Positions 20,871 to 64,000 of a stretch of DNA of 64,000 nt are shown here, piece after piece. The position numbers and the translations under genes are program-made. This DNA comes from Amphiscolops sp. MND2022. Lineage: Eukaryota. Positions within the stretch are counted from its first letter, which is position 1. Every line of letters starts with the position of its first letter. Under the pieces are notes generated by a model. That model saw nothing but the letters and a program-made list of their open reading frames with translations. It made no database searches and was not told the DNA's origin. The stretch covers positions 70,868,001-70,932,000 of the forward strand of contig OZ076409.1 of assembly GCA_964187785.1 (NCBI GenBank), written 5' to 3'.

Positions 20871-20903
20871 GTGCGGGGGGGTAACCCCAACAAATATATT
20901 GGA

Positions 20904-20927
20904 GGATTCGGGTAGGGTCCTGAATCC
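20904..20927 (+). other. Head stem-loop with conserved (T/G)AGGGN loop (representative; one per unit head)
   Basis: GGATTCGGG-TAGGGT-CCTGAATCC in family C; different but still pairing stems surround the same loop in the other families. Confidence 0.8.
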
Positions 20928-22381: not shown

Positions 22382-22425
22382 GATAGCCTTTCAAGTTGGC
22401 CTGGTGTCAACTTGGAAGGGCTATC
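22382..22425 (+). other. GATAGCC-type subterminal hairpin (representative; one per C, E, G, H and I unit)
   Basis: GATAGCCTTTCAAGTTGGC-CTGGT-GTCAACTTGGAAGGGCTATC. The unit E version pairs over 20 bp when two G-T wobbles are allowed. Confidence 0.85.
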
Positions 22426-22841
22426 CTTCAAAAATCGTTAATCAAGTGTGTTTTTGGGTATGTTTTTATCATTTTAGAATCAATTAGAGCTCCAAGAAAA
22501 GTTTGCCAACGACAAAAACTATGTCGTGATGATTCCGTTATTAGAATGATGGTTAACAAAATGTTGATAAAGTTGATTTTTTACATTTCAAATGTGTCCT
22601 AAAAGCCAGAAAACTTCTTTACCAAAAAAATGGTATTGATTGAATTGTATATAACAGGTAATAAAAGTTCAAATTGATTATTACGTTTCATTATTCAAGC
22701 TAAAACTTCATAACAAAGTTTAATTAACGTCCACGCCACATACTTTACATCAACGCCCACCGTCTGTGGGCATGCCGAGGCATGCCCTTCGACGACATAT
22801 ACCAAATACATACCTAACGACGCCCGTACATGCCGGGCTAG

Positions 22842-25438
22842 GTGCCGGGATTTCTATTCGATAAAGTATGTGGCGCGCCTTGGGTAGGGTCCCTTGCGCG
22901 CTCTTGGGTATGGTGTTCACCAGCTAGGAAATAGGGGTCGATTTTTCGGGATCTCCTAAACTAGCCACACGATTTGGCTGAAATTTGGCACACGTACTCC
23001 CCTCGGCATGGTGAAGATGATTCCCTACTAGCGTTTTGCTCGCAAAATTTTTTTTGTTGTCCAAAATAACGGTTTTTTGTGGAAAATTTTGAACTTTTTT
23101 TAAATTTCATCTTATATCTCGCCACGGGTTTACGCTAGCGCTTCAAAACCCTGCTAAAGAAAGCTTGCAAACTGTCTCAGGAATGCGGTGTGAAATTTTG
23201 AGCACAATCGGACTTAAACTCAAGGAGATATAGCGTTTTTCCGGAGCGGGGGGGTTTCATTTTTCTAACGGTCCAGCTTATCTTAGCCATTTTTTCGAAA
23301 ATGTACTCGCCTAAAGACCTCCCCTGGCCGGTTTTATTCCCAGCAAAACCATTTGGCCCTAAATACGGAGTTTCAGCGTTCCAGCATTCCCGGGCGAAAA
23401 GTTGTGGGACTTAGAATAGTTCAAAAAATTTCAAATTTTTTTTCCGTTATTTGGGCCCCCAAAGTGGGGGAAAAGACCCCCCAACCAGTAAAGCAAGTGA
23501 ATGCATGTGCAAAGCCCTTGTTTGGACGAGAAAAATGCCGTTTAGAACGTCTTTTTATCTTGGCTCAACGTTGACTTATGACGTTTTGAAGGTGATGTTT
23601 GGAGGTGTAAAGCACGTGAATAGTAAACGTTATGAGTATTTATCTGATCTGAAAGCCATTGAGATGCAATATGGTTTGCTCAAAACGTAATTCATTGCAG
23701 TTTGGCAATCAATCAACACCCTTTGTTGTCGTTTGACATATTTTTTTGTTGTTATAATAAAAAATTTTGTGTATTTTTTCATTTTTTTCTCATCAAATAA
23801 CTTGAAACAGTTGAGTACATTCCATCCCCCCTTCCGGGGGAGATGAGAATGTACTCGCAAAAAGCACCGAACTACGGCCCTTACCTTCCCGAGCTACGCA
23901 GTATAAGGATTACATATTGGTTCCGACAATTTCATAGAGTTAAATCTTGGTAATCTGTCTGGATATGCAGAAAAATCAGCACGTGCCTTTTAATACCAAG
24001 TTGCTTACAACGACAATTATTTTATATCAACGCCCCCATATTTATCAACGCCCCCCGTCTGTGGGCATGCCGAGGCATGCCCTTCGACGACGTATACCAA
24101 GATATGCGTTAACGCGTTAGCCTAGGTGCCGGGATTTCTATTCGATAAAGTATGTGGCGCGTGTGGGTAGGGTCCCTGGCGCGCTCTTGGGTATGGTGTT
24201 CACCAGCTAGGAAATAGGGGTCGATTTTTCGGGATCTCGTAAACTAGCCACACGATTTGGCTGAAATTTGGCACACGTACTCCCCTCGGCACAGTGAAGA
24301 TGATTTCCTACTGACGTTTTTCCCGCAAAATTTTTTTTGTTGTCCAAAATAACGGTTTTTGGGGTAAAATTTTGAATTTTTTTTAAATTTTATCTTATAT
24401 CTCGCCACCGGTTTAGGCTAGCGCTTCAAAACCCTGCTAAAGAAAGCTTGCAAACTGTCTCAGGAATGCGGTGTGAAATTTTCAGCTCAATCGGACTTAA
24501 ACTCGGGGAGATATAGCGTTTTTCCGGAGCGGGGGGGTTTCATTTTTCTAACGGTCCAGCTTATCTTAGCCATTTTTTCGAAAATGTACTCGCCTAAAGA
24601 CCTCCCCTGGCCGGTTTTATTCCCAGCAAAACCATTTGGCCCTAAATACGGAGTTTCAGCGTTCCAGCATTCCCGGGCGAAAAGTTGTGGGACTTAGAAA
24701 AATTCAAAAATTATCAAAAAAAATTTTTTCCGTTTTCCGCCCTCCCCCCCTAGGGGAAAAGACCCCCCAACCAGTAATTTGAGTGAATTCATGTGGAAAG
24801 GCCATGTTTAGACGAAAAAATTGCCGTTTAGAACGTCTTTATATCTCAACCTGAACTTGACTTATGAAGCTTTAAAGGTGATGTTTGGACGTGTGAAGCA
24901 TGTAAAAAAAGGAATTTTTTTGATTTTATTTCATCAGAAAGTCATTGAATCACACGCTGTGAAGCCCAGAGCGTGGTTTCTAATAGTTTGGTATCGTTTA
25001 AACGCATTTTGGTGTCTTTTTACTCTGTTTAAAAAACTTTTCTCCTGAAAATTAATAAATTTTGATTACTTTTCTTACTTTCCATTAATTTTTTTTTCTT
25101 ATATTTTTACTTGAAACAGTTGAGTACATTCCATCTCCCTTCCCGGGGGAGATGAGAATGTACTCGCAAAAAGCCGCGAACTACGGCCCATACCTTCCCG
25201 AGATACGCAGTATAAAGATAACATAATGGTCCAGACATTTTAATGGAGTTGTATCTTGGTAATATGTCTGGATTTGCAGAAAAATCAGCACGTGCCATTT
25301 TATACCAAGTTGCTCGCAACGACAATTAATTTAAATCAACGCCCCCCACAAAAATCAACGCCCCCCGTCCGTGGGCATGCCGAGGCATGCCCTTCGACGA
25401 CGTGCACCAAAATATGCCCCGAGCGCGTTAGCAGCTAG
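22842..25438 (+). mobile_element. Family B units x2 (1284 and 1313 bp; the second has a diverged 3' half)
   Basis: Shared head subtype (...GGGTATGGTGTTCACCAGC...); junctions at 24125 and 25438; GAGTAC-type hairpins present. Confidence 0.7.
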
Positions 25439-26827
25439 GTGGTTGGGGCGGTCCCCAGAACGCACAAGGAGGCGCGGGGAGGGTCCTGCGCCGACGTAGA
25501 ATAATTTCATATAATACTAGTATCCTACATGGGTGTTTTAGAAGCGATTTTGGAATCTAACCGTAGGATTTGGATAATTTTTTGCATGCGGCCATAACTC
25601 GAAATTCTAAGAACTTTTTCCTACTGTCATTTTCCCCGCAAATTGTTTTTTGTTGACTTATGGCCGAAAAACCGGAAATAACGTCCTTTTTAGACGTTAT
25701 ATCCGAAGTGTCGTCATAACTTTTTTCCAGGGCATGCTAGCGTTCTCGTTCACTCTTACACTTAGTTGCAGCATCTCAAAATACAACTGGTGGAAAATTT
25801 TGGTTGCATTCGGATCACCCCCCACCGAGATAGAAGGGTTCCCCCCTCCAGTTTTACCCCCCAAAGTTGCGAAAAAGCCAATTTTGAGCATGAAGCCGAG
25901 GATTTAGCGTAGCCGCACCCTTCTGATGTTTTGTTGTACGTATTGGGGTCAATCGGACGACATGTGTGGTTTTCACCCCCAACCCCCCCTGGGACCGGAA
26001 ATGACATTTTTTTGTGTTTTTTTGGCAGAAATTAGCCTTTTTCATTATTTGGCAGTCGTTTTAGGGACTCCTAGCAGGATATCGAAATTGAAATACAACC
26101 TGATCACAACCCAGTGACAACATGTTGGCCATTTGGAGGTACCATCATGACCGGAAGTGGGGTCAACCCCCCTTTTTGTGACCGCTTTTTGACCTTGTGA
26201 ACCAAAATGCCAACAACTTGAGGTTTAATGACGCATTCAAATCTGTACAAAGATAGAATGTTAGACAACCAAAGTCCCGGAAGATCTTTAGCATATACCG
26301 GAAGTTACCCCCCATGACCGGAAGTTACCCAATGTGACCGGAAATGGTCCAAAAAGTAATGTAAAGTTGAATTTTTCACTTTTTAAAGACCACTTCATTG
26401 AACATTTTCATTCCCAAAACTAGCGTACTGGCTTGTTTTGCTGAATTTATGCAAATTGATGAACTTCATCACCCCCGATAGCCTTCGAAGTTGACCTTGC
26501 GTCAACTTTGGAGGCTATCGATTCTGAAAATGAACAATAAAGTACATTGTTGCTCTCGCATTTTTCCGTTGTTTTTCCTCAAACACTCTTGAGACATATA
26601 CATGGCTGTTAGTTGAAATCAATATTTTAGCCCATGTTATAGCGGGAGTAGCTACGCCTTACACCGGCTAGTGTGGTTTTGAAATTACATTATTTAAATT
26701 AACTACTGACCGTCTTAGTCAAATCCACACATTCATGCCAACACCCACCGTCTGTGGGCATGCCGAGGCATGCCCTTCGACGACGTATGACGAATCCACT
26801 CCAACGACACCCGCAGTCCTCAGCTAG
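25439..26827 (+). mobile_element. Singleton unit E (1389 bp)
   Basis: Body unlike its neighbours but with the same layout: head hairpin GGCGCGGG-AGGGT-CCTGCGCC, GATAGCC-type hairpin at 26476-26520, core palindrome at 26756-26775, CTAG at 26824-26827. Confidence 0.65.
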
Positions 26828-28100
26828 GTGGCCGGAAATTTTTTTTTCATCAAAATCTTTGCCATTGGGGGAGGGGCCCCGGATGGCCAGTAGTACGGCA
26901 TAGCTCCCTACAGAATCCAGGCGGAAAAAACGTGATTTTGGAAACTAGCCGTCAGAATTTGCTCAAAATTTGCATACGGCTTCCTATGACAATCCTAAGA
27001 ACTAATCCCTACTGGCATTTTGCCCAAAAAACGCAAAACGTTGGTCAAAATCTTAGTTTTTTGGTCAAAAAATGGCGTTTTTTCGAAAAAAATTTTTTTC
27101 AGAGACAATTACTCGTAACTGGTTCACCCAGCGCAATAACGCCTAGCTGATTTATTGTTGGGCACTTCATGAGGAGTGCGTATACAAATTTTCGTCCAAA
27201 TCGGATAAAAGTTGATTGAGAAATAACTGAAAATTTGAGGCATTTTTTTGGAAATTTTTGAAATCCCAGTCTATCTCTGCCGTTTTTTGCCCAGATTTTT
27301 TTCCAGACACTCTCCTAAAGACCTCCCCTGGCCAGTTTACCTCCCAGCAAAACCATTTGGCCCTAAATACGGAGTTTCAGCATTCCAGCAAACCCCGGGT
27401 AAAAGATAAATGACTTAGAATTTTTTCGAAAAATTTTCAAAAAAAAATTTTTTTTCAAATTCAGGCCTCCTAAAGTAAAGAAACTTCCACACAACTAGTA
27501 TTGCAAGTGGATGCATGTGGAAAGTGCTTGAATAGACGAGAAAAATGAGCTAATATACGACTCTGTAGCTTAACTTGACGTTGACTTATGATAATTTTAG
27601 TGTGAGCTTCGTATGTGCTGAAAAAATCAAAGAAACCTAAAAGTCTTTTAAAAGTAATCAGAATACGTCCAATCAACCCCAGAGCTGTTAAATTGCCGTT
27701 GTGCAGTGGAGCAACACCATTTAGAGTATTTTGACCCATTTTGATAAGTTTTGATACCGTCTTGTTCATCTGATAGCACAAAACAGTTGAGTACATTCCA
27801 TCTCCCCCTTGTGGAGGAGATGAGAATGTACTCGCTAAAAGTCAGGTACTATAGCACCCATTTTGTTTTTTTCGACGCTAGTGATGCTATTGCACACGAA
27901 TACAATAGTTTTGTCAAATCATGTTTAACATGATGAATCTTACTATACCTTTAGTGTACGTTAACCTACTACTACAACATCGCATCCGTAACGTCAACGC
28001 CACATACTCGCATCAACGCCCACCGTCCGTGGGCATGCCGAGGCATGCCCTTCGACGACGTATGCCAAATAGCGCCACAGGGCGCAAACTTGTCCGCTAG
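26828..28100 (+). mobile_element. Singleton unit F (1273 bp), related to A and B
   Basis: Contains the B-like block CCATTTGGCCCTAAATACGGAG, the A-like block CCACACAACTAGTATTGCAAGTGGATGCATG, a GAGTAC-type hairpin (~27790-27833) and the core palindrome at 28031-28050. Confidence 0.65.
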
Positions 28101-30075
28101 GTGCGGGGGGGTAACCCCAACAAAGATATTGGAGGATTCGGGTAGGGTCCTGAATCCGATCTTAGTACCGTCAGCTATCAGTAGAAAATTTCCCTCAAAA
28201 ACCGGGATCTCGGGAACTAACCGTAGGATTTGAAAGTTGGAGCGGCCCCCACCAGATTTTCCCAAATAGATCGCCCCCCACCGGGCTCCATACCCCGGAA
28301 AATTTTTTTTTGGCCACACGGGCGACTGTTAGGGGGTCATTTTAGGGGTAAAATTCATATTGGTCCATATAACTTTTTTTCTGTTGGTTTAAAAGTTTGG
28401 GAACCCTACTAAAGGTTTTTCGACCATGTTGCAAGGGCTCCGGAGGTGCAAACCAAATTTTTCTATCTTGAAGCTATCTCCAAGTACCCCCCCGCTCAAA
28501 CCGTTATTTTTCCGGAAACGCAGGTTTTTGACCCGGAAGGAGTCGTCTGAGCGCGGGGTCGTTAGGTGATGTTTTGGGGACGGCCTTGAGACGAAGTGGG
28601 GGACATGTAGTTTGCCAACCTCAGTTTACCCCCCGGACGGGAAATGACCGTTATATGAGCGGGAAAAATGCCCCCCTCCACGTTTTACCGCTATTTCCGG
28701 TGTGAAGGAGTGGGAGTAGCTCGTCGGGTGCCATATATCAAAAGTAGGTTCAGACAAGGACCTATCGGAAACAAGTAGTTTGGGACCCCCTGACCCAACC
28801 CATTAGCGGGAAATGGGGCTTCCGCCTCCTTTTTTTGTGGTTAAAAACGGAAAATGGGCATTGAGGGATAAATATCTCGTGAACGCGTGGAGCTACGGTG
28901 TCCTTCACTACTACAAGGTTTCATACCCATGATATGGTGCCTTCAGGGGGGCAAACAGATTTCCGCTATCTATCACCGTTACGGACTTGGCCCCCCAGCC
29001 TAACCGCTATGTGACCGGAAATGTCACTTTTTGAGCCCAAAGGGTCGGTCCCAGCCAGGGAACGTTAGATAACTTATTGTAGTACTCATTGAGACGAGTT
29101 GGGGGACATAGTTTCAGTCACCCCCGTTACCCCTTGGGACCGGAAATGACCGTTATGTGGGTAAAATTGGGATTTTTGTACTTTTTGAAGGGCAATTAGG
29201 TGCGGAAGGAGTGGTAATAGTTGCTTGGACACTATATGATGGAAGGGAGGACGTGAGGCGAACATTCGGACATAACCGTTATGTTGACCCTAAAGTCCCC
29301 CTGGTACCGTAAACGACCGGAAATGGTCAAATTTTGTGTCTATTGGGTACAAATGTTTGGTATTTTGTAAATAAAAGTATCTATTAGGTGTTTCGACGGT
29401 CTGCAGTAGTGAACATAGTCATGAAACCTTGTTGGGGGGTAACGGTATATAGCACCGGAAGTCCAAACCGTTAGAGACGGGATAGGTTTTTTCGTTTTAA
29501 AATGTCTTTCGGCGTACTTTTGTCAACTAATATGGAATATTTTTTAAAATTAAAGTTTTTCCATATAGTTTCAGAGACTCCCAAACCTCAAACAACATAA
29601 CCGTTACCTTATGATAGCCTTTCAAGTTGGCCTGGTGTCAACTTGGAAGGGCTATCCTTCAAAAATCGTTGATCAAGTGTGTTTTTGGGTATGTTTGAAT
29701 CATTTTAGAATCAATTAGAGCTTCAAGAAAAATTTGCCAACGACAAAAACTATGTCGTGATGATTCCGTTATTAGAGTAATAGTTAACAAAATGTTGATA
29801 AAGTTGATTTTGTACATTTCAAATGTGTCCTTTATGCCAGAAAACCTTTTTACCAAACTAATGATTTTGATTGAATTGTATATAACAGGTAATAAAAGTT
29901 CAAATTGAATGTTACGTTTCATTTTGTAAGCTGAAACGTGATATTATAGTTTAATTAACGTCAACGCCACATACTTTACATCAACGCCCACCGTCTGTGG
30001 GCATGCCGAGGCATGCCCTTCGACGACGTATACCAAACACCCTCCATATCTACACCCACCCGCGGTAGCAGCTAG
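28101..30075 (+). mobile_element. Family C unit (1975 bp)
   Basis: Near-identical by eye to the unit at 42093-44066; bounded by CTAG|GTG. Confidence 0.7.
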
Positions 30076-32154
30076 GTGGTCGGTAGCTTTACCTAACTCT
30101 TTAGCGTAGTCGTGGCATCCCTTAGGGCAGGGTAGGGCCCCTGACCGTCACCAAGTATACCCTGGGGCCCCATTGGACAAAAATCCGAGTATGAGAAATC
30201 TACCCGTCAGAATTGGCTGAAATTTGGCATGTGGCCGCCTTATGGGAGAATATTACGATGTTCCTGCTGACATTTTGCCGAGAAAAGATTTTTTGTTGAC
30301 CAAAAATAACGTTTTTGACCCCAAAGAGACCGTTTTTTCACTTTTTTCAACTTTGAGAGCCCATATCTCGTCTCCAGTTGCCCGGAGCGGTTCGCACGTG
30401 GACAGCAATATTGATCAGCGGTGTTAAAGGAGTGTGTAGACAAATTTTGATCAAAATCGGACTGAAACTCAGCGAGTTATCATGCACCGTTACGGATTTT
30501 CCCCCCTGCCCCGGTCGTTATTTTACCAAAAATTGCACATTTTGACCAGGAAAGAGTCGACACAGCGCAAAGTTGTTGGGTAATGTTTTGTAGCGCATCT
30601 AGAAAAGTGTTGGGGGACATGTAGTTTGCCGACCCTGGTTACCCCCTCTGATAGGAAATGACCGTTATGTGAGTTTTAGAACTGCCCCCTCCAACTTTAA
30701 CCGTTATTTCCGGTGTGAAGGAGTGGGAGTAGCGTGTCGGGTGCTATACATCAAAAGTAGGTTTAGACAAGGAGCTATCGGAAACATGTAGTTTGGGACC
30801 CCCTGACCCAACCCGTTAACCGCTAATGGGGCTACAGACTCCATTTTTACTGTTAACACTGGAAAACGGGTCTCAAAAGGAAAATATCTCGTGAACGCGT
30901 GGAGCTACGGTGTCCATCACTTCTACAAGGTTTCATACCCATGATATGGTGCCTTCAGGGGGGCAAACAGATTACCGCTATCTATCACCGTTACCGACTT
31001 GGCCCCCCAGCCTAACCGCTATGTGACCGGAAATTGCACCTTTTGAGCCCAAAGGGTTGGTCCTAGCCGGGCAACGTTAGCTAACTTATTGTAGTACTCA
31101 TTGAGACGAGTTTGGGTTCATAGTTTCAGTCACCCCCCGTTACCCCTTAGAACCGGAAATGACCGTTATGTGGGTAAAATTGCACTTTTTATACATTTTG
31201 AAGGGCGTTTAGGTGCGGAAGGAGTGGCAATAGGTGCTTGGACACTATATGAAATAAGGAAGGACGTGAGGCGAGCATTCGGAAATAACCGTTATATTGA
31301 CCAAGAAGTCCCCTTGGTACCGGATATGACCGGAAATGGTCAAATTTCGAGTTTAAAAAGTACAATTGTTTGGTATTTCATGGATAAAAAAATCTGTTAG
31401 GTGTTAACTGCCTCCAGAAGTGATCACAATCATGAACAACCTTGTCGGATGTAACTGTAAATTGCACCGGAAGTCCAAACCGTTAGCGGCTGGATATTCG
31501 ACTTTTTTTACTTTCAAAACGACTTTAGGCGCTGCTTTTTTGTGTTGAATTGTACTAAATTTGACTATTATGGACCATTCTTAACAAATTGAAATTGTTT
31601 CACATAGTTTTAGGGACTCCAATACTTTTATCAACAATACCGTTACATGGTGTTGATAGCAAATAGGTGATAATTGAATTTTTTGATAGCCTTCTCAGTT
31701 GACCTAGTGTGTCAACTTGGGAAGGCTATTACTACAAGAACATGAAATCTTGTTAAATTGAGCAACTATCTTGTTCTCATCGTTTTTTTCGTATGGTTCA
31801 TTCTTACAGTTAGTTGATAGAACCAGTTCAATAATTTTTTCACAGTTTTTGACTACCTTGAACTCGACACACTTGAGTACAAAATGAGTCGTTTTGTTTT
31901 TGATAAACTATACGAATTAAAGCAGCTACATTGAACTTCAAACAAGTGATACAAGTGTTTGATTCATTGCATTAGATGGACCTCAGTTTTTGCAGTTATT
32001 CGGCGCTACAATCCTTCCTACATACAGACTCTTGTCACTACAACGCCACATACAAAATCAACGCCCACAGTCCGTAGGCATGCCGTGGCATGCCTTTCGA
32101 CGACGCGCGCCTAACCCGAGCGCGCCCGCCATCAATTTAGGCGGTAGCAGCTAG
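30076..32154 (+). mobile_element. Singleton unit G (2079 bp): D-like first ~400 bp, C-like middle, unique 3' part
   Basis: CTGAAATTTGGCATGTGGCC and CGCACGTGGACAGCAATATTG resemble family D; the middle aligns with family C. GATAGCC-type hairpin at ~31685-31730; variant core AGGCATGCCGTGGCATGCCT at 32076-32095. Confidence 0.6.
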
Positions 32155-34177
32155 GTGGTCGGGGTTTTCTCCCCACCTTTATTTGCGAGCGCGGGAGACG
32201 GGTCCTGTCGCGAGCCTTAGATACCAAAAATAGCCTATCCGCGACCGGGTCAAAAAAATGCGATCTCGAAAACTAGCCGTACGATTCGGCTGAAATTTGG
32301 CACACGGCTTCCTATAACAGTTCTAAGAAACATTTACTACTGACGTTTTGCTGGCAAAAATCGAAAAGTGGGTCAAAATAACGGTTTTTGGGGTAAAAAG
32401 TAGCGTTTTTTTGAAAATTTTGCATTTCACAGCCAATTACTCGGAAATGGTCGATCCAGCGCAGTAACGCCTTGCTGATTTATTGTTGGGCACGTCAAGA
32501 AGCGTACGTACACAAATTTTGGTCCATATCGGACTGAAACTTGGGGAGATATTAACGGTAGTTTGGGGGTTTCAAACCGCTATTTTACCGGAAATTGCAC
32601 TTTTTGACCGGGAAGGAGTTGTCTGAGTGCGGGGTCGTCTGGTAATGTTTTGTAGAGCATCTGGGGACGTAGTGGGGGACATGTAATTTAATGACCCCGG
32701 TTAACCCCTCGGACGGGAAATGACCGTTATGTGGGTTTTAAATGTGGCCCCCGCCAATTTTCCCCGTTATTTCCGGTGTGAAGGAGTGGTAGTAGCGCGT
32801 CGGGTGCCTTATATCAAAAGTACGTTTAGACAAGGACCTATTGGAAACATGTGGTTTGGGACCCTTTGAACGGACCCGTTAGCCGCTAATGGGGTGACTG
32901 CCTCCTTTTTTTGGGGGTAAAACCGTAAAAAGGGCATTGAAGTGAAATTAACTCGTGAACGCGTGGAGCTATCGTGTCCTTCACTACTACAAGGTTTCAT
33001 ACCCATGATATGGTGCCTTCAGGGGGGCGAACAGATTTCCGCTATCTATCACCGTTACGGACTTGGCCCCCCAGCCTAACCGCTATGTGACCGGAAATGT
33101 CACTTTTTGAGCCCAAATTGTCAGTCCCAGCGTGGCAACGTTAGGTAACATATTGTAGTACTCATTGAGACGAGTTGGGGGATTTAGTTTCAGTCACACC
33201 CTGTTGGCCCGTTAGGTCGGAAATGACCGTTATGTAGTGAAAAATGGGATTTTTATAGTTTTTGAAGGCCATTTCGGGCAGGAAGGAGGGGTAATATGAC
33301 TTTGGACACCATATGATGGAAGACGTGAAGTGTGACGAGCATTCCGGATTAACCGTTATGATGACCCGGAAGTCCCCCTGGCCCCGGAAATGACCAAAAA
33401 AATGTAACATTTTGTGTTTTTTGATTAAAAATGTTTGTTATTTAACCGAATAAAGTATATGTTAGGTGTTTCAATTTCTTCCAGAGGTGAATATAGTCCA
33501 ATTACATGGTGGGGGGTAACGGTATATTGCCCCGGAAGTCCAACCCGTTGGGTCTGAGTATGTTTTTCGGGTTTTAGAATGTGTCAAAACGTACTTTTGT
33601 GTAATAAATCTCTATTGTAGGCTAATAAGGACCATTTTTGAAGAGTTTAAATTTTTTCATAGTAGTTTGTGGAACACCAAAAACTTAAATAACATATAAC
33701 GTTATGATATATTATGATATCACACGTTATATTATGATAGCCTTTCAAGTTGGCCTTGTGTCAACTTGGAAAGGCTATCCTTCAAGACTTATACAACAAA
33801 GAAGTTTTTGGGTACATTTGTAATGCTTTAGTGTTGCAATTAGAGTATCAACAAGAGTATACCAAGCACTAAAACTATGTCTAGTTTCCTGAATATTTGT
33901 CGGAAATGCTTTTTTTAATCTCTTTTAATGTGGTCTAAATACTCTGAAAACACTTTATCGAACCAATTTTCTTGGATGAACCTTAGTAACAATACTAAAA
34001 ATCGTAGACAACCTTGCTTCGTTTAAATATATGAAGCTGAAACCGCACCTTACCGTTGCTCAAACTTCAACCCGACGCCCCATAGCATACATCAACGCCC
34101 ATCGTCTGTGGGCATGCCGAGGCATGCCCTTCGACGACGTATGCCAAATACCTTTAACCCGACGCCCGCAGTCCTGG
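32155..34177 (+). mobile_element. Singleton unit H (2023 bp): F-like first ~400 bp, C-like remainder; ends in CTGG
   Basis: GCTGATTTATTGTTGGGCAC and CGGCTTCCTAT are shared with unit F; C-like middle; GATAGCC hairpin at ~33736-33779; core at 34110-34129. Confidence 0.6.
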
Positions 34178-37100
34178 GTGCGGGGGGGTAACCCCAACAA
34201 AGATATTGGAGGATTCGGGTAGGGTCCTGAATCCGATCTTAGTACCGTCAGCTATCAGTAGAAAATTTCCCTCAAAAACCGGGATCTCGGGAACTAACCG
34301 TAGGATTTGAAAGTTGGAGCGGCCCCCACCAGATTTTCCCAAATAGATCGCCCCCCACCGGGCTCCATACCCCGGAAAATTTTTTTTTGGCCACACGGGC
34401 GACTGTTAGGGGGTCATTTTAGGGGTAAAATTCATATTGGTCCATATAACTTTTTTTCTGTTGGTTTAAAAGTTTGGGAACCCTACTAAAGGTTTTTCGA
34501 CCATGTTGCAAGGGCTCCGGAGGTGCAAACCAAATTTTTCTATCTTGAAGCTATCTCCAAGTACCCCCCCGCTCAAACCGTTATTTTTCCGGAAACGCAG
34601 GTTTTTGACCCGGAAGGAGTCGTCTGAGCGCGGGGTCGTTAGGTGATGTTTTGGGGACGGCCTTGAGACGAAGTGGGGGACATGTAGTTTGCCAACCTCA
34701 GTTTACCCCCCGGACGGGAAATGACCGTTATATCAGCGGGAAAAATGCCCCCCTCCACGTTTTACCGCTATTTCCGTTGTGAAGGAGTGGGAGTAGCTCG
34801 TCGGGTGCCATATATCAAAAGTAGGTTCAGACAAGGACCTATCGGAAACATGTGGTTTGGGACCCCCTGACCCAACCCGTTAGCGGGAAATGGGGCTTCC
34901 GCCTCCTTTTTTTACGGTTAAAAACGGAAAATGGGCATTGAGGGGTAAATATCTCGTGAACGCGTGGAGCTACGGTGTCCTTCACTACTACAAGGTTTCA
35001 TACCCATGATATGGTGCCTTCAGGGGGGCAAACAGATTTCCGCTATCTATCACCGTTACGGACTTGGCCCCCCAGCCTAACCGCTATGTGACCGGAAATG
35101 TCACTTTTTGAGCCCAAAGGGTCGGTCCCAGCCAGGGAACGTTAGATAACTTTTTGTAGTACTCATTGAGACGAGTTGGGGGACATAGTTTCAGTCACCC
35201 CCCGTTACCCCTTGTGACCGGAAATGACCGTTATGTGGGTAAAATTGGGATTTTTGTACTTTTTGAAGGGCAATTAGGTGCGGAAGGAGTGGTAATAGGT
35301 GCTTGGACACTATATGATGGAATGGAGGACGTGAGGCGAACATTCAGACATAACTGTTATGTTGACCCTAAAGTCCCCCTGGTACCGTAAACGACCGGAA
35401 ATGGTCAAATTTTGTGTCTATTGGGTACAAATGTTTGGTATTTTGTAAATAAAAGTATCTATTAGGTGTTTCGACGGTCTGCAGTAGTGAACATAGTCAT
35501 GAAACCTTGTGGGGGGCAACGGTATATAGCACCGGAAGTCCAAAACGTTAGAGACGGGATAGGTTTTTCCGTTTTAAAATGTCTTTCGGCGTACTTTTGT
35601 CAACTAATATGGAATATTTTTTAAAATTAAAGTTTTTCCATATAGTTTCAGAGACTCCCAAACCTCAAACAACATAACCGTTACCTTATGATAGCCTTTC
35701 AAGTTGGCCTGGTGTCAACTTGGAAGGGCTATCCTTCAAAAATTGTTGATCAAGTGTGTTTTTGGGTATGTTTGAATCATTTTAGAATCAATTAGAGCTT
35801 CAAGAAATGTTTGCCAACGACAAAAACTATGTCGTGATGATTCCGTTATTAGAGTAATAGTTAACAAAATATTGATTAAGTTGATTTTTTACATTTCAAA
35901 AGTGTCCTAAAAGCCAGAAAACCTCTTTACCAAACAAATGGTATTGATTGGATTGTATATAACAGGTAATAAAAGTTCAAATTGATTATTACGTTTTATT
36001 ATGTAAGCTGAAACGTCATATTATAGTTTAATTAACGTCAACGCCACATACTTTACATCAACGCCCACCGTCTGTGGGCATGCCGAGGCATGCCCTTCGA
36101 CGACGTATAACAAACACCTTTAATATCTACACCCACCCGCGGTAGCAGCTAGGTGCGGGGGGGAAACCCCATCCCTTATCTTGGAGGATTCGGGTAGGGT
36201 CCTGAATCCGAGTTCAGTGCCGCCAGCTCTCAGTAGAAATCTGGGAAATTTTTTGCGATCTCGTGATCTAACCATAGGATTTTAAAGTTGGAGCGGCCCC
36301 CACCAGATTTTCCAAAGTTATTCGCCCCCCACCGGGTTCCAGCGTGATTGAAATATTTTGTTGGGGTACACGGGCGACCGTTAGGGGTCATTTTAGGGGT
36401 AAAATTTATATCCGGTCGCATAACTTTTTTCCTGTTGGTTTAAAACTTTGGGACCCTGCTAAAAGTTTCTTGACCGAGTTGCGGTGGCTCCGGAGGTCCA
36501 AACCAAATTTTTCTATCTTGAAGCTATCTCCAAGTACCCCCCCGCCCAAACCGTTATTTTTCCGGAAACGCCGGTTTTTGACCCGGAAGGAGTCGTCTGA
36601 GCGCGGGGTCGTTAGGTGTTGTTTTGGGGACGGCCTCGAGACGAAGCGGGGGATATATAGTTTGCCGACCCCAGTTTACCCCCCGCACGGGAAATGACCG
36701 TTATATGAGCGGGAAAAATGCCCCCCTCCACGTTTTACCGCTATTTCCGGTGTGAAGGAGTGGGAGTAGCGCGTCGGGTGTTATATAACAAAAGTAGGTT
36801 TAGACAAGGACCTATCGGAAACATGTAGTTTGGGACCCCCTGGACCAACCCGTTAGCGGGAAATGGGGCTTCCGCCTCCTTTTTTTACTGCTAAAACCGT
36901 AAAATGGGCATTGAGGGGTAAATATCTCGTGAACGCGTGGAGCAATCGTGTCCATCACTACTACAAGGTTTCATACCCATGATATGGTGCCTTCAGGGGG
37001 GCAAACAGATTTCCGCTATCTATCACCGTTACCGACTTGGCCCCCCAGCCTAACCGCTATGTGACCGGAATTGTCACTTTTTGAGCCCAAAGGGTCGGTC

Positions 37101-40100
37101 CCAGCCGGGGAACGTTAGGTAACTTATTGTAGTACTCAATGAGACGAGTTGGGGGATATAGTTTCAGTCACCCCCCGTTACCCCTTGGGACCGGAAATGA
37201 CCGTTATGTGGGTAAAATTGCAATTTTTATACTTTTTCAAGTGTATTTAGGTGCGGAAGGAGTGGTAATAGGTGCTTGGACACTATATGAGGTAAGGGAG
37301 GACGTGAGGCGAGCATTCGGAAATAACCGTTATGTTGACCCTAAAGTCCTCCTGGTACCGTAAACGACCGGAAATGGTCAAATTTTGTGTCTATTGGGTA
37401 CAAATGTTTAGTATTTTGTAGATAAAAGTATCTATTAGGTGTTTCGACGGTCTGCAATAGTGAACATAGTCATGAAACCTTGTGGGGGGTAACGGGGTAT
37501 ATAGCACCGGAAGTCCAAACCGTTGGACACAGGATAGGTTTTTGGTTTGAAAATGTCTTTCGGCGTACTTTTGTCGACTATTATGGACTATTATTAAAAA
37601 TTAAAGTTTTTCCATATAGTTTCAGAGACTCCGAAACCTCAACCAACATAACCGTTACATTTTGATAGCCTTTCAAGTTGGCCTGGTGTCAACTTGGAAG
37701 CGCTATCCTTCTGAAATCGTTAATCAAGAGTGTTTTTGGGTAGGTATATATTGCATTAGTACCAATTAGAGCTTCATCAACAGTGTATCAACGACAAAAA
37801 CTATGCCGTCATGATTCCATTATCAGAATCATAGTGAGCAAATTGTTGAAAAAAATGGTTTTTTCCATACAAAATGTGTCCGAAATGCCAGGAAACCTAT
37901 TTACCTAACAAATGGTATTAATTGGAATGTATGTAACAGATTTATAAAAGTTCAAATTGAATATTACATTTCATTATGGAAGCTGAAACGTCATATTTTA
38001 GTTTAATTAACGTCAACGCCACACACTTTACATCAACGCCCACCGTCTGTGGGCATGCCGAGGCATGCCCTTCGACGACGTATACCAAATACATACCTAA
38101 CGACGCCCGTACATCCCGGGCTAGGTGCGGGGGGGTAACCCCAACAAAATTTTTGGAGGATTCGGGTAGGGTCCTGAATCCGAGTTCAGTGCTGCCAGCT
38201 TTCGTTAAGAAAATTTGGATAGGATTCGGGATCTCGTGATCTAACCATAGGATTTTAAAGTTGGAGCGGCCCCCACCAGATTTTCCGAAAATTAGCGCCC
38301 CCCACCGGGTTCCAGCGTGATTGAAATATTCTGACGGGGTACACGGGCGACCGTTAGGGGGTCATTTTAGGGGTAAAATTCATATTGGGCCACATAACTT
38401 TTTTTCTGTTGATTTAAAACTTTGGGACCCTGCTAAAAGTTTCTTGACCGTGTTGCAAGGGCTCCGGAGGTCCAAACCAAATTTTTCTAGCTTGAAGCTA
38501 TCTCCAAGTACCCCCCCGCCCAAAACGTTATTTTTCCGGAAACGCAGGTTTTTGACCCGGAAGGAGTCGTCTGAGCGCGGGGTCGTTAGGTGATGTTTTG
38601 GGGACGGCCTTGAGACGAAGTGGGGGACATGTAGTTTGTCAACCTCAGTTTACCCCCCGGACAGGAAATGACCGTTATATGAGCGGGAAATTTGCCCCCC
38701 TCCACGTTTTACCGCTATTTCCGGTGTGAAGGAGTGGGAGTAGCGCGTCGGGTGTTATATAACAAAAGTAGGTTTAGACAAGGACCTATCGGAAACATGT
38801 AGTTTGGGACCCCCTGGACCAACCCGTTAGCGGGAAATGGGGCTTCCGGCCCGTTTTTTTACGGTTAAAAACGGAAAATGGGCATTGAGGGGTAAATATC
38901 TCGTGAACGCGTGGAACTACGGTGTCCTTCACTACTTCAAGGTTTCATACCCATGATATGGTGCCTTCAGGGGGGCAAACAGATTTCCGCTATCTATCAC
39001 CGTTACCGACTTGGCCCCCCAGCCTAACCGTTAAGTGACCGGAAATGTCATATTTTGAGCCCAAAGGGTCGGTCCCAGCCAGGGAACGTTAGGTAACTTA
39101 TTGTAGTACTCATTGAGACGAGTTGGGGGACATAGTTTCAGTCACCCCCCGTTACCCTTTGGGACCGGAAATGACCGTTATGTGAGTAAATTTGCCATTT
39201 TTGTCCTATTTGAAGGGCATTTAGACGCGGAAGGAGTGGTAACAGGTGCTTGGACACTATATGAGGTAAGGGAGGACGTGAGGCGAGCATTCGGACATAA
39301 CCGTTATGTTGACCCTAAAGTCCCCCTGGTACCGTAAACGACCGGAAATGGTCAAATTTTGTATTTTTAGGGTACAAATGTTTGGTATTTTATGGAATAA
39401 AGTACATGGAAGGTGTTTCAAAGGCATCCAGAAATGAACATAGTCATGAAACCTTGAGGGGGGTAACGGTATATAACACCGGAAGTCCAAGCCGTTGGAC
39501 ACAGTATAGGTTTTTGGGTTTTAAAATGCTTATGAACGTACATTTGTGGGTTGAATTGTTCTAATATTGACTATTTTCGATATTTTTTGACATTAAAGGT
39601 TTTTCCAATAGTTTCAGGGACCTCCAAAGCTTCAATCAACATAACCTTTACATTATGATAGCCTTTCAAGTTGGCCTGGTGTCAACTTGGAAGGGCTATC
39701 CTTCACAAATCGTATATCAAGTGTGTTTTTGAGTAGGTTTTTATCATTTTAGTATCAATTAGAGCTTAATCATTAGTTTGCCAACGACAAAAACCATGTC
39801 GTGATGATTCCGTTAGTAGAAGAATAGTTAACAACTTGTTGACAAAGTTGATTTTTTGCATTTAAAATGTTTCCTAAATGCCAGGAAAACGATTTACGTT
39901 ATAAATGGTACTGATTGACCCAAATAACAGTTAAATAAAGTTAAACATTATTTTTTCGTTTCATTATAGAAGCTGAAACCTCACGTTTTAACTTAATTAA
40001 CGTCAACGCCACATACTTTACATCAACGCCCACCGTCTGTGGGCATGCCGAGGCATGCCCTTCGACGACGTATACCAAAATCCAATATATCTACACCCGA

Positions 40101-43100
40101 TTGCGGTAGCAGCTAGGTGCGGGGGGGTAACCCCAACAAAGATATTGGAGGATTCGGGTAGGGTCCTGAATCCGATCTTAGTACCGCCAGCTATCAGTAG
40201 AAAATTTCCCTCAAAAACCGGGATCTCGGGAACTAACCGTAGGATTTGAAAGTTGGAGCGGCCCCCACCAGATTTTCCCGAATAGATCGCCCCCCACCGG
40301 GCTCCATACCCCGGAAAATTTTTTTTTGGCCACACGGGCGACAGTTAGGGGGTCATTTTAGGGGTAAAATTCATATTGGTCCATATAACTTTTTTTCTGT
40401 TGGTTTAAAAGTTTGGGAACCCTTCTAAAGGTTTTTCGACCATGTTGCAAGGGCTCCGGAGGTGCAAACCAAATTTTTCTATCTTGAAGCTATCTCCAAG
40501 TACCCCCCCGCTCAAACCGTTATTTTTCCGGAAACGCAGGTTTTTGACCCGGAAGGAGTCGTCTGAGCGCGGGGTCGTTAGGTGATGTTTTGGGGACGGC
40601 CTTGAGACAAAGTGGGGGACAAGTAGTTTGCCAACCTCAATTTACCCCCCGGACGGGAAATGACCGTTATATGAGCGTGAAAAATGCCCCCCTCCACGTT
40701 TTACCGCTATTTCCGGTGTGAAGGTGTGGGAGTAGCGCGTCGGGTGCCATATATCAAAAGTAGGTTTAGACAAGGATCTATCAAAAACATGTGGTTTGGG
40801 ACCCCCTGACCCAACCCGTTAGCGGGAAATGGGGCTTCCGCCTCCTTTTTTTTCGGTTAAAAACGGAAAATGGGCATTGAGGGGTAAATATCTCGTGAAC
40901 GCGTGGAGCTACGGTGTCCTTCACTACTACAAGGTTTCATACCCATGATATGGTGCCTTCAGGGGGGCAAACAGATTTCCGCTATCTATCACCGTTACGG
41001 ACTTGGCCCCCCAGCCTAACCGCTATGTGACCGGAAATGTCACTTTTTGAGCCCAAAGGGTCGGTCCCAGCCAGGGAACGTTAGATAACTTTTTGTAGTA
41101 CTCATTGAGACGAGTTGGGGGACATAGTTTCAGTCACCCCCCGTTACCCCTTGTGACCGGAAATGACCGTTATGTGGGTAAAATTGGGATTTTTGTACTT
41201 TTTGAAGGGCAATTAGGTGCGGAAGGAGTGGTAATAGGTGCTTGGACACTATATGATGGAATGGAGGACGTGAGGCGAACATTCAGACATAACCGTTATG
41301 TTGACCCTAAAGGCCCCCTGGTACCGTAAACGACCGGAAATGGTCAAATTTTGTGTCTATTGGGTACAAATGTTTGGTATTTTGTAAATAAAAGTATCTA
41401 TTAGGTGTTTCGACGGTCTGCAGTAGTGAACATAGTCATGAAACCTTGTGGGGGGTAACGGTATATAGCACCGGAAGTCCAAAACGTTAGAGACGGGATA
41501 GGTTTTTCCGTTTTAAAATGTCTTTCGGCGTACTTTTGTCAACTAATATGGAATATTTTTTAAAATTAAAGTTTTTCCATATAGTTTCAGAGACTCCCAA
41601 ACCTCAAACAACATAACCGTTACCTTATGATAGCCTTTCAAGTTGGCCTGGTGTCAACTTGGAAGGGCTATCCTTCAAAAATCGTTGATCAAGTGTGTTT
41701 TTGGGTATGTTTGAATCATTTTAGAATCAATTAGAGCTTCAAGAAATGTTTGCCAACGACAAAAACTATGTCGCGATGATTCCGTTATTAGAGTAATAGT
41801 TAACAAAATATTGATTAATTTGATTTTTTACATTTCAAAAGTGTCCTAAAAGCCAGAAAACCTCTTTACCAAACAAATGGTATTGATTGGATTGTATATA
41901 ACAGGTAATAAAAGTTCAAATTGATTATTACGTTTTATTATGTAAGCTGAAACGTCATATTATAGTTTAATTAACGTCAACGCCACATACTTTACACCAA
42001 CGCCCACCGTCTGTGGGCATGCCGAGGCATGCCCTTCGACGACGTATACCAAATACATTTCATATCTACACCCTAACCGCGGTAGCAGCTAGGTGCGGGG
42101 GGGTAACCCCTACAAAGATATTGGAGGATTCGGGTAGGGTCCTGAATCCGATCTTAGTACCGTCAGCTATCAGTAGAAAATTTCCCTCAAAAACCGGGAT
42201 CTCGGGAACTAACCGTAGGATTTGAAAGTTGGAGCGGCCCCCACCAGATTTTCCCAAATAGATCGCCCCCCACCGGGCTCCATACCCCGGAAAATTTTTT
42301 TTTGGCCACACGGGCGACTGTTAGGGGGTCATTTTAGGGGTAAAATTCATATTGGTCCATATAACTTTTTTTCTGTTGGTTTAAAAGTTTGGGAACCCTA
42401 CTAAAGGTTTTTCGACCATGTTGCAAGGGCTCCGGAGGTGCAAACCAAATTTTTCTATCTTGAAGCTATCTCCAAGTACCCCCCCGCTCAAACCGTTATT
42501 TTTCCGGAAACGCAGGTTTTTGACCCGGAAGGAGTCGTCTGAGCGCGGGGTCGTTAGGTGATGTTTTGGGGACGGCCTTGAGACGAAGTGGGGGACATGT
42601 AGTTTGCCAACCTCAGTTTACCCCCCGGACGGGAAATGACCGTTATATCAGCTGGAAAAATGCCCCCCTCCACGTTTTACCGCTATTTCCGGTGTGAAGG
42701 AGTGGGAGTAGCTCGTCGGGTGCCATATATCAAAAGTAGGTTCAGACAAGGACCTATCGGAAACATGTGGTTTGGGACCCCCTGACCCAACCCGTTAGCG
42801 GGAAATGGGGCTTCCGCCTCCTTTTTTTACGGTTAAAAACGGAAAATGGGCATTGAGGCATAAATATCTCGTGAACGCGTGGAGCTACGGTGTCCTTCAC
42901 TACTACAAGGTTTCATACCCATGATATGGTGCCTTCAGGGCGGCAAACAGATTTCCGCTATCTATCACCGTTACGGACTTGGCCCCCCAGCCTAACCGCT
43001 ATGTGACCGGAAATGTCACTTTTTGAGCCCAAAGGGTCGGTCCCAGCCAGGGAACGTTAGATAACTTATTGTAGTACTCATTGAGACGAGTTGGGGGACA

Positions 43101-46100
43101 TAGTTTCAGTCACCCCCGTTACCCCTTGGGACCGGAAATGACCGTTATGTGGGTAAAATTGGGATTTTTGTACTTTTTGAAGGGCAATTAGGTGCGGAAG
43201 GAGTGGTAATAGTTGCTTGGACACTATATGATGGAAGGGAGGACGTGAGGCGAACATTCGGACATAACCGTTATGTTGACCCTAAAGTCCCCCTGGTACC
43301 GTAAACGACCGGAAATGGTCAAATTTTGTGTCTATTGGGTACAAATGTTTGGTATTTTGTAAATAAAAGTATCTATTAGGTGTTTCGACGGTCTGCAGTA
43401 GTGAACATAGTCATGAAACCTTGTCGGGGGGTAACGGTATATAGCACCGGAAGTCCAAACCGTTAGAGACGGGATAGGTTTTTTCGTTTTAAAATGTCTT
43501 TCGGCGTACTTTGTCAACTAATATGGAATATTTTTTAAAATTAAAGTTTTTCCATATAGTTTCAGAGACTCCCAAACCTCAAACAACATAACCGTTACCT
43601 TATGATAGCCTTTCAAGTTGGCCTGGTGTCAACTTGGAAGGGCTATCCTTCAAAAATCGTTGATCAAGTGTGTTTTTGGGTATGTTTGAATCATTTTAGA
43701 ATCAATTAGAGCTTCAAGAAAAATTTGCCAACGACAAAAACTATGTCGTGATGATTCCGTTATTAGAGTAATAGTTAACAAAATGTTGATAAAGTTGATT
43801 TTGTACATTTCAAATGTGTCCTTTATGCCAGAAAACCTTTTTACCAAACTAATGATATTGATTGAATTGTATATAACAGGTAATAAAAGTTCAAATTGAA
43901 TATTACGTTTCATTTTGTAAGCTGAAACGTGATATTATAGTTTAATTAACGTCAACGCCACATACTTTACATCAACGCCCACCGTCTGTGGGCATGCCGA
44001 GGCATGCCCTTCGACGACGTATACCAAACACCCTCCATATCTACACCCACCCGCGGTAGCAGCTAGGTGCGGGGGGGTAACCCCAACAAATATATTGGAG
44101 GATTCGGGTAGGGTCCTGAATCCGATTTTAACTCTAATAGCTATCGATAGGAAATCTTGCAAAAATTTCGGGATCTCGTGATCTAACCATAGGATTTTAA
44201 AGTTGGAGCGGCCCCCACCAGATTTTCCGAAAATTAGCGCCCCCCACCGGGTTCCATACCCCGGAAAATTTTTTTCTGGCCACACGGGCGACCGTTAGGG
44301 GGTCATTTTAGGGGTAAAATTCATATTGGGCCACATAACTTTTTTACTGTTGGTTTAAAACTTTGGGACCCTGCTAAAAGTTTCTTGACCGTGTTGCAGG
44401 GGCCCCGGAGGTCCAAACCAATTTTTTCTATCTTGAAGCTATCTCCAAGTACCCCCCCGCTCAAACCGTTATTTTTCCGGAAACGCAGGTTTTTGACCCG
44501 GAAGGAGTCGTCTGAGCACGGGGTCGTTAGGTGATGTATTGGGGACGGCCTTGAGACGAAGTGGGGGACATGTAGTTTGCCAACCTCAGTTTACCCCCCG
44601 GACGGGAAATGACCGTTATATGAGCGGGAAAAATGCCCCCCTCCACGTTTTACCGCTATTTCCGGTGTGAAGGAGTGGGAGTAGCGCGTCGGGTGCCATA
44701 TATCAAAAGTAGGTTTAGACAAGGATCTATCGGAAACATGTGGTTTGGGACCCCCTGGACCAACCCGTTAGCAGGAAATGGGGCTTCCGGCCCGTTTTTT
44801 TACGGTTAAAAACGGAAAATGGTCATTGAGGGGTAAATATCTCGTGAACGCGTGGAGCAATCGTGTCCTTCACTACTACAAGGTTTCTTACCCATGATAT
44901 GGTGCCTTCAGGGGGGCAAACAGATTACCGCTATCTATCACCGTTACCGACTTGGCCCCCCAGCCTAACCGCTAAGTGACCGGAAATGTCATATTTTGAG
45001 CCCTAAGGGTCGGTCCCAGCCGGGGAACGTTAGGTAACTTATTGTAGTACTCAATGAGACGAGTTGGGGGATATAGTTTCAGTCACCCCCCGTTACCCCT
45101 TGTGACCGGAAATGACCGTTATGTGGGTAAATTTGCAATTTTTATACTCTTTGAAGTGCATTTATTTGCGGAAGGAGTGGTAATAGGTGCTTGGACACTA
45201 TATGAGGTAAGGGAGGACGTGAGGCGAGCATTCGAAAATAACCGTTATGTTGACCCCAAAGTCCCCCTGGTACCGGAAGTGACCGGAAATTGTCAAATTT
45301 TGTGTTTTTAGGGTACAAATGTTTGGTATTTTGTGGATAAAAGTACCTGGAAGGTGTTTTAAAAGCCTCCAGAAGTGAACATAGTCATGAAATTTTGTGG
45401 GGGGTAACGGTATATAGCACCGGAAGACAAAAACGTTGGAGACATGTTAGGTTTTTTGGTTTTAAAATGTCTTTCGGCGTACTTTTGTCCACTATTATGA
45501 ACTATTTTTGAAAATTAAAGTTTTTCCATATAGTTTCAGAGACTCCCAAACCTCAACCAACATAACCGTTACATTTTGATAGCCTTTCAAGTTGGCCTGG
45601 TGTCAACTTGGAAGGGCTATCCTTCAAAAATCGTCAATCAAGTGTGTTTTTGGGTATGTTTGTATCATTTTAGAATCAAATAGAGCTTCAAGAAAAGTTT
45701 GCCAACGACAAAAACTATGTTGTGATGATTCCGTTATTAGAATAATAGTTAGCAAATTGTTGAGAAAATTGATTTTTTCCATATAAAATGTGTCCTAATT
45801 GCCAGGAAACCTATTTAACTAACAAATGGTATTGATTGGAATGTATGTAACAGAGTTATAAAAGTTCAAATTGATTATTACGTTTCATTATGGAAGCTGA
45901 AACGTAATATTTTAGTTTAATTAACGTCAACGCCACACACTTTACATCAACGCCCACCGTCTGTGGGCATGCCGAGGCATGCCCTTCGACGACGTATGGC
46001 AAATCCCTTCTAACGACGCCCGTACATGCCGGGCTAGGTGCGGGGGGGTAACCCCAACAAAGATATTGGAGGATTCGGGTAGGGTCCTGAATCCGATCTT

Positions 46101-63192: not shown

Positions 63193-64000
63193 GTGCCGGG
63201 ATTTTCTATTCGACAAGTTTGCGCGCCTTGGGGAGGGTCCCTTTGCGCGCTTTAAGATCCAGGTGTTTCCAACTCCTAAACGGGCATGTGATTTCGACGA
63301 TCTCCTAAACTAGCCATACGATTTGGCTGAAATTTGGCACACGTACCCCCCTCGGCACGGTGAAGATGATTTCCTACTGACGTTTTTCCCGCTAAACATT
63401 TTTTGTTGACCAAAATAACGGTTTTTGGGGTAAAATTTTCAACTTTTTTTAAATTTCATCTTATATCTCGCCACGAGTACACGCTAGCGCTTCCAAACCT
63501 TGCTGACGAAACCTTGCAAACTGTCTCAGGAATGCTGTGTGAAATTTTCAGCTCAATCGGACCTAAACTCGGGGAGATATAGCGTTTTTCCGGAGCGGGG
63601 GGGTTTCATTTTTCTAACGGTCCAGCTTATCTTTGCCATTTTTTCGAAAATGCACTCGCCTAAAGGCCTCCCCTGGCCGGTTTTATTCCCAGCAAAACCA
63701 TTTGGCCCTAAATACGGAGTTTCAGCGTTCCAGCATTCCCGGGCGAAAAGATGTGGGACTTAGAAAAGTTCAAAAATTTTCAAAAAAAAATTTTTCCGTT
63801 ATTTGGGCCCTCAAAGTGGGGGAAAAGTCCCCCCAACCAGTAAAGCAAGTGAATGCATGTGGAAAGCCCTTGTTTAGACGAGAAAAATGCCGTTTAGAAC
63901 GTCTTTTTATCTTAACTTGACATTGACTTTTGTCGTTTTGAAGGTGACCGTTAGATACGGAAAATTGATGTTTTGAGTATTTATCCCATCTGAAAGCCAT
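63193..64000 (+). mobile_element. Family B unit, partial (cut by the window end)
   Basis: Same subtype as the units at 6781 and 13204 (head ...CGACAAGTTTGCGCGCCTTGGGGAGGGTCCC; GAAGGTGACCGTTAGATACGG). Confidence 0.7.

Follow-up and report, generated by a model that had tools for sequence, protein, structure and literature searches.

Whole units of eight families joined at one CTAGGTG core in Amphiscolops: a candidate variant of the Helitron-type element and a possible, testable mechanism of self-targeting

A 64-kb stretch of the genome of Amphiscolops sp. MND2022 (GenBank assembly GCA_964187785.1, contig OZ076409.1, positions 70,868,001 to 70,932,000; hereafter the window) consists of tandem non-coding units that meet at the sequence CTAGGTG, which raises the question of how whole units of different families came to be placed next to one another at a single exact site. 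An earlier, sequence-only reading of this DNA had proposed a variant rolling-circle family with a Helitron-like CTRR 3' end and GTG, instead of TC, at the 5' end. The analysis reported here favours, with a probability of roughly 0.55, non-autonomous variant Helitron-like elements that inserted at each other's junctions and were then reshuffled by ordinary recombination.

The array and its junctions

Cutting the window at the 37 junction sites gave 38 co-oriented units with no gaps, the first and last being cut by the window edges. The units range from 1.27 to 2.38 kb and fall into eight families (labels A–H set by this analysis; A, n=3; B, n=11; C, n=16; D, n=4; E, F, G and H, n=1 each), arranged along the + strand in the order AAABBBBBBDDDDBCBBEFCGHCCCCCCCBCCCCCCCB. 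The 16 copies of the C family are ~1.97 kb in length and share 79-99% identity. No truncated unit was found among the 36 that are complete, all of which (36/36) start at the core.

1..64000, + strand: the array, 38 non-coding units with 37 junctions
1..6780, + strand: three A units, 2.37 kb each
6781..14475, + strand: six B units, 1.27-1.29 kb
14476..19581, + strand: four D units, 1.28 kb, a duplicated dimer
19582-20870, 22842-25438, 48034-49323 and 63193-64000, + strand: other B units
25439..28100, + strand: single E unit (1389 bp) and single F unit (1273 bp)
30076..32154, + strand: single G unit, 2079 bp
32155..34177, + strand: single-copy unit H, 2023 bp
34178..36152, + strand: a C-family unit, 1975 bp
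34174..34180, + strand: variant core CTGGGTG, at the joint between unit H and a C unit

The CTAGGTG core was found 36 times, always on the + strand, compared with a mean of 4.0 and a maximum of 9 in 100 shuffles. This count bore out the earlier description of 36 CTAG junctions and one CTGG junction with GTG after all 37. The base after GTG is G or C at 37/37 junctions, and the base three further on past that position is G in 37/37; the heads of the units are family-specific from the fourth base onward. Inside the units, 65 CTAG and 101 AGGTG words are present that are not used as junctions, and the full 7-mer does not occur there at all.

A scan of metagenomes for the unit termini identified a single locus, L001, on a 1.17-kb non-coding contig. 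The palindrome block of L001 (described below) is identical to that of one C unit over 51/51 nt, although the bodies are only ~70% alike, and L001 also has the head hairpin and the same junction position. However, the core in this 38th junction is CGAGGTG, leaving C-x-x-G-G-T-G as the letters that are invariant across the 38 junctions. CTRR is therefore found at 37/37 window junctions but not in L001, which has CGAG, and the true end may include the following G. Counted from the CGCAGTC word onward, the tail bearing CTGG is 5-8 nt shorter than the related tails of E and D, suggesting that CTGG may mark a shortened end and not a tolerated CTRR variant. CTRR as a rule, as earlier supposed, was thus not upheld.

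Fourteen of the 37 junctions join different families, and ten of these could be tested, as the upstream family has a same-family reference (the four junctions that follow the single-copy units E, F, G and H were left out). At 10/10 the sequence before the core is a tail of the upstream family, and what follows the core is a head of the downstream family. The family switch lies inside the 7-nt core and not in the near-identical block of ~60 nt around the palindrome that is common to all units just upstream, which supports the junction as a real site-specific joint. The unit boundary lies within CTAGGTG, and the units have a single polarity. Where a junction type is repeated (C to B three times, B to C twice), different tails and heads are used each time. 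In one contig from sequencing run X1 (depth 2.1), a D-type tail meets a B-type head at the core, a combination that is absent from the window.

Adjacent C units are 90.3% identical (12 pairs) and distant ones 89.8% (108 pairs); for B the values are 88.6% (6 pairs) and 87.1% (39 pairs), and no identical copies were found in either family. As neighbours are no more alike than distant copies and none are identical, a single rolling-circle concatemer was ruled out. The sequence-only reading had not remarked on this wider point, namely that the array is a mixture of families that grew one unit at a time.

The window contains only seven open reading frames of at least 120 aa, the longest of 160 aa, and no credible gene was recognised on the basis of these lengths (the frames were not submitted to protein searches). 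An Rfam scan of 20000-36500 and a search for tRNA and tmRNA genes gave no matches.

Structured ends of the units

From the start of a unit, the order on the + strand is GTG, a small hairpin, the head hairpin, a module at +113 to +145, a patchwork body, an internal hairpin, the palindrome, the tail and the core.

34184..34195, + strand: small G/C hairpin right after GTG, in C, A, E, G, H, L001 and one B variant
34211..34234, + strand: head hairpin with conserved loop G(T/G)AGGG(T/C), ~+30 to +60, weak in D, G and H
34291..34322, + strand: conserved head module, ~+113 to +145, best kept in B, D, G, H and L001, more diverged in C
33736..33778, + strand: long internal hairpin of type II (C, E, G, H), 300-425 nt from the 3' end
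3901..3942, + strand: long internal hairpin of type I, 460 nt from the 3' end in A, with related forms in B, D, F and L001
34110..34129, + strand: subterminal 20-nt palindrome (8-9 bp stem), followed by TTCGACGAC at 34130-34138, in 37/37 units and L001
34139..34173, + strand: family-specific variable tail, ~30-46 nt, belonging to the upstream unit
28072..28085, + strand: hairpin GCGCC-ACAG-GGCGC of unit F, 11 nt before the core at 28097
4129..4178, + strand: degenerate second palindrome block inside A units, with no core after it

Hairpins are present at both ends. On the 3' side, the palindrome ends 39-55 nt before the core in 37/37 units, confirming what had been noted earlier. It folds more stably than shuffled sequence (z -3.2 to -4.6), and a paired change from G-C to A-T at the base of its stem was found in 3/37 units. 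The tail hairpins to which the sequence-only reading had drawn attention exist but carry less weight. A perfect stem of at least 5 bp ending 6-14 nt before the core, as in unit F, was found in 2/37 units (F and G), and the 2/32 distinct tails with such a stem compare with 1.5 expected from shuffled tails; as evidence for a Helitron end the F hairpin is thus at chance level. Likewise, GCCCG-N7-CGGGC is present in 6/16 C tails, but it shares its final C with CTAG, so that it overlaps the core and does not simply abut it. A 5-bp stem anywhere in the tail was found in 10/32 cases versus 4.2 expected, five of the ten being variants of one C-type hairpin. A hairpin spanning the junction forms at some junctions, with z ranging inconsistently from +0.1 to -4.7 among the 10 folded, and was rejected as a shared feature.

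On the 5' side, the small G/C hairpin is missing from most B heads and is not above shuffles. The stems of the head hairpin covary between families, with 8 of 11 pairs changing on both sides, and 67.8% of cells are paired versus 58.7% when shuffled and 34-52% when the register is slid; these values lean towards the structure, as the 11-pair register was set by hand from C and E and applied to 13 of 22 distinct head segments. RNAalifold kept three loop-proximal pairs in the 13 heads, none of which shows a two-sided change. The head hairpin is stabler on the + strand in 9/9 family means.

The two types of internal hairpin are unrelated, with stems of ~18-19 bp and a similar position 260-460 nt from the 3' end; a type II example in a C unit is at 29613-29655. 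Between the internal hairpin and the palindrome lie one or two repeats of the ATCAACGCC type. The second palindrome block in A units (also at 1752-1789) is located ~240 nt inside the end and takes the form of a longer inverted repeat in the first A unit, where the left arm pairs fully with TTCGACGAC. It is possibly a bypassed or ancestral terminus.

Probable kinship with Helitrons and the possible position of the nick

Canonical Helitrons have the form TC...hairpin...CTRR and insert at A|T, and Helraiser, whose hairpin lies 11 nt before its end, produces circles with precisely joined ends that are able to reinsert (PMC4778049). The insect Hel-2 non-autonomous Helitrons have 5'-TC and CTAG-3' ends (PMC4344730). 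Two words of the heads, CGATTTTAATGAAATTT (17 nt; L001) and TGAAATTTGGCA (12 nt; B, D, G and H), were both found in the 5' part of Hel-2, on the CTAG strand, and 19/37 tails end in CGCG(G/T)-N-CTAG, like the last 15 nt of Hel-2 when compared by eye (PMC4344730). No Hel-2-type words were found in the HINE supplements (PMC4067079), which may hold little sequence. As the Hel-2-like module lies near the GTG end on the CTAG strand, it backs both the link to Helitrons and the orientation; these word matches support an animal rolling-circle type read on the + strand, and not membership of HLE1. The proposal of a variant rolling-circle family is partly supported, by the site-specific joint, the absence of terminal inverted repeats and poly(A) tails, the structured ends and this module, but not by the F hairpin or the CTRR rule.

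The units resemble HLE1 (Hel-2, PMC4344730; Helraiser/Helibat, PMC4778049) in being non-coding, in their 3' CTAG (36/37) and subterminal palindrome, in the absence of terminal inverted repeats and target duplications, and in their precise end-to-start junctions, common 5' module and similar last 15 nt in those 19 tails. Unlike HLE1, they have a conserved 5' hairpin, and the HLE1-type hairpin ~10-12 nt before the 3' end was found only in the two units mentioned above.

Features of HLE2 were also considered. Helitron2 starts with a 5'-T and has two hairpins together with asymmetric inverted repeats of 8-15 bp (PMC3627910), FoHeli3-5 start with TGCCT (PMC5148889), and HINEs have 12-15 bp subterminal repeats (PMC4067079). 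The targets of HLE2 elements are T|T or T|C. As in this group (Helitron2, FoHeli3-5, HINE/DINE-1), the array units have hairpins at both ends, the head hairpin starting ~30 nt in and not at the terminus, and a 3' palindrome well inside the end; unlike it, they lack T-rich ends and an asymmetric inverted repeat of 8-15 bp, and their junctions show no sign of a TT target. Helitron2-type inverted repeats were rejected, as the longest perfect match is 6 nt (mean 4.6 for a unit's own ends versus 5.4 across families) and imperfect pairing of the ends gave a weak family-level signal (p 0.025 by score, 0.085 by energy).

A nick elsewhere within CTAGGTG, also raised by the sequence-only reading, is at least as likely as one at CTAG|GTG. 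T is found at positions 2 and 6 of the core, and L001 lacks the first. As described elements start with T, the nick would be CTAGG|TG if the 5'-T rule holds, giving elements of the form 5'-TG...CTAGG-3', a placement that depends on the one outside junction. The 5' end would then be less odd, with a 5'-T as in HLE2 and a TG start as in FoHeli3-5 (PMC5148889), and the 3' end odder. Reading the minus strand, with CTAG as the 3' end of a reverse element, is less likely, as CTRR would then be found at 36/38 junctions versus 37/38 and the Hel-2-like module is on the + strand.

Helitron tandem arrays are reportedly present in plant centromeres, as Xiong is said to have described in 2016. They are also described on the D. 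pseudoobscura Y (Helitron-1_DPe; 10.1101/2021.06.02.446622), in Xenopus (PMC12001565), in Hydractinia subtelomeres (PMC11934779) and in PMC13404089. Like these, the array described here is a long head-to-tail series of Helitron-related units. However, the Drosophila, Xenopus, Hydractinia and plant arrays, as far as these sources describe them, are of a single family and often partial, and Helitron arrays are usually explained as rolling-circle concatemers of one element, whereas in the present array whole units of eight families are interleaved and adjacent ones are not copies of one another. The telomere-targeted Helitrons of Paramecium form a third clade with its own ends that inserts into telomeric repeats (10.1101/2025.11.06.686955). 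They share with the array units such distinct ends, strict orientation and many derivatives lacking open reading frames packed in one compartment, but no spacer or telomeric repeat lies between the units here.

A possible mechanism and its alternatives

The mechanism proposed, in which the enzyme, circles, nick position and targeting are inferred, would run as follows. A Rep (HUH) transposase encoded elsewhere would mobilise the units one at a time, nicking the GTG end and peeling off the + strand. It would stop past the palindrome at the core and close a circle, as shown for Helraiser. The end-to-start junction in the genome would have the same sequence as the circle junction, and hence could be a natural substrate for the enzyme. 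Strand transfer between circle and junction would add a whole unit without duplication, and unequal exchange would then cluster and mix copies of the same family. More tentatively, the units may represent a separate animal rolling-circle clade whose main or only target is its own end-to-start junction, so that cassettes from unrelated families would be stacked one by one into an integron-like, one-way array in a eukaryote, by an HUH enzyme that recognises two conserved hairpins and a 7-nt core.

Several observations weigh against these elements being of Helitron type or having inserted at each other's junctions. Neither the window nor the outside scans for these ends yielded a Rep, a helicase or any other gene. 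No solo copy or empty site was seen in the window or in contigs over 24040-34260, which is why nick and target have to be deduced from the junctions. The hairpins may not be needed for targeting, as the full 7-mer is absent inside units and could suffice as target by itself. The palindrome is slightly stabler on the - strand in 5/6 groups, and for the head hairpin the two strands differ by 0.4-2.1 kcal/mol, in part as a result of G-richness. The difference from HLE1 also counts here, as the units have CTAGGTG and not CTAG|TC (TC directly follows CTRR at 0/37 junctions, and no conserved internal A|TC was found in the heads by eye), one outside junction has CGAG, and the conserved hairpin lies 39-55 nt, not ~11 nt, from the end. 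The words shared with Hel-2 are short and AT-rich, and both they and the paper were picked after the fact. Modules like these words occur in other animal repeat classes and are not limited to HLE1.

Insertion alone also does not account for the array. Same-family neighbours are found at 23/37 junctions versus 9.7 when shuffled, indicating that local duplication shapes the array as well. The D dimer has been duplicated (first and third units 99.0% identical, second and fourth 98.7%, neighbours 85%); the four D units form two types 85% alike overall with the first 130 nt nearly identical. Mosaics assembled from other copies are common among the B and C units. Two processes are therefore needed, one that joins units exactly at the core and another, ordinary exchange, that acts between members of a family. 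Clear C mosaics that switch nearest neighbour along their length are at 51318-53288, 55263-57237 and 59211-61197.

Further searches were made outside the window. Viral contigs scanned for the termini with three patterns gave no matches, and five loci (L002-L006) obtained there with a looser pattern had no BLAST similarity to any unit and were taken as chance. No matches were found in prokaryotic genomes scanned for the termini, or in plasmids and phages compared with 33900-34500. A search of sequencing runs gave one matching run (0.17 share), and no RNA run was listed. Among 6 of 25 loose contig ends inspected (26 records over 24040-34260, 10.2 of the 64 kb), no solo flank was found, and none was at a junction.

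Among the alternatives, tyrosine-recombinase cassettes of a Crypton-like kind are unlikely. CTAGGTG would then be a 6-8 bp crossover core retained as a direct repeat, with circles integrating at an existing core. The length of the core fits, and Cryptons have 4-6 bp terminal direct repeats and no terminal inverted repeats (PMC3212892). However, a recombinase site is defined in the same source by 11-13 bp inverted arms around a core of 6-8 bp, and no such arms surround the core here (~3/12 matches, maximum 7, in five registers). The CTGG and CGAG variants would fall inside the overlap, the inverse core expected on the - strand of an attC-type site gave 0 matches, and the heads carry the Hel-2-like module. 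In addition, animal Cryptons are reported to be without terminal repeats (PMC3212892).

It is improbable that the array is a satellite that arose long ago from a single element, whose copies diverged in separate arrays and have since been mixed by homologous or microhomology exchange alone, with no enzyme acting at the core today. The modules common to families, the same-family mosaics, the duplicated dimer and the clustering of same-family neighbours are all consistent with such a history. However, exchange would be expected in the ~60-nt palindrome block and would carry a downstream tail with it, which was seen at 0/10 testable junctions. The use of different tails and heads each time a junction type recurs also argues against it, as do terminal hairpins that keep their pairing despite changing sequence.

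Quite improbable is a Replitron-like or other Y1 HUH element, which would act as in the mechanism above but through a different enzyme, the core being a short terminal direct repeat that solo copies would carry whole on either side. Replitrons insert in one direction only, carry terminal direct repeats of 6 bp and a palindrome at the right end, and have non-autonomous partners (PMC10288648). Against this, they are reported there from algae, plants, stramenopiles, cryptophytes and haptophytes, while the Hel-2-like module points to an animal element, and Replitron-1 has fuzzy ends and variable duplications whereas the array junctions are exact (37/37). The units resemble Replitrons (PMC10288648) and Cryptons (PMC3212892) in a core compatible with a short terminal direct repeat, in the lack of terminal inverted repeats and in oriented insertion; unlike those elements, they have no recombinase-type arms and no enzyme was found with them.

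A stack, at one site, of cut-and-paste elements that duplicate a CTAG target, or of retroelements, is highly improbable: CTAG is a palindromic tetramer common to neighbours, but the terminal inverted repeats and poly(A) tails that the sequence-only reading had named as refuting signs were looked for and are absent (perfect inverted repeat between the first 20 nt and the last 130 nt of a unit, 6 nt at most; longest A run in the last 60 nt, 4), which largely refutes this explanation, and all junctions are co-oriented (37/37) with no 5'-truncated unit.

The array would thus represent a variant of the Helitron-type element. Helitron tandem arrays, variant ends, a telomere-targeted clade and Helitron self-insertion (PMC5148889) are already known from the sources cited. 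A search of the open literature (subscription papers, Repbase and Dfam lying outside its scope) found no multi-family array joined at one exact site, and no report of these ends. Whole units of eight families have been added at one exact site, which suggests that the elements insert site-specifically at junctions of their own. Discovery of a Rep partner would provide a Helitron-type enzyme whose termini are new and whose target is defined, allowing a direct test of target choice and of how large repeat blocks are built; if no partner exists, the array would be an orderly element-derived satellite of modest importance. HELIANO relies on known Helitron end marks (PMC11417382), and structure-based finders that need TC...CTRR or short inverted repeats would miss these units.

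Modules are shared between families, with B and D 80% identical over 698 nt, C and G 81% over 1138 nt, and F and H 77% over 296 nt. G is a family-level chimera with a D-like 5' part and a C-like body, and H has an F-like 5' part and a C-like body; the switch point in both is near +340 to +420 (window 30076-34177). CpG is not depleted in the window (observed/expected 0.98), and CpG transitions make up 9/72 singleton changes among five close C copies. In the C, E, G and H bodies, CCGGAA(A/G)T was found 79 times on the + strand versus 20 on the -, and ACCGTTA 125 times versus 47, the copies not being independent. These words resemble ETS and Myb binding sites; alternatively, they could be enzyme-binding repeats.

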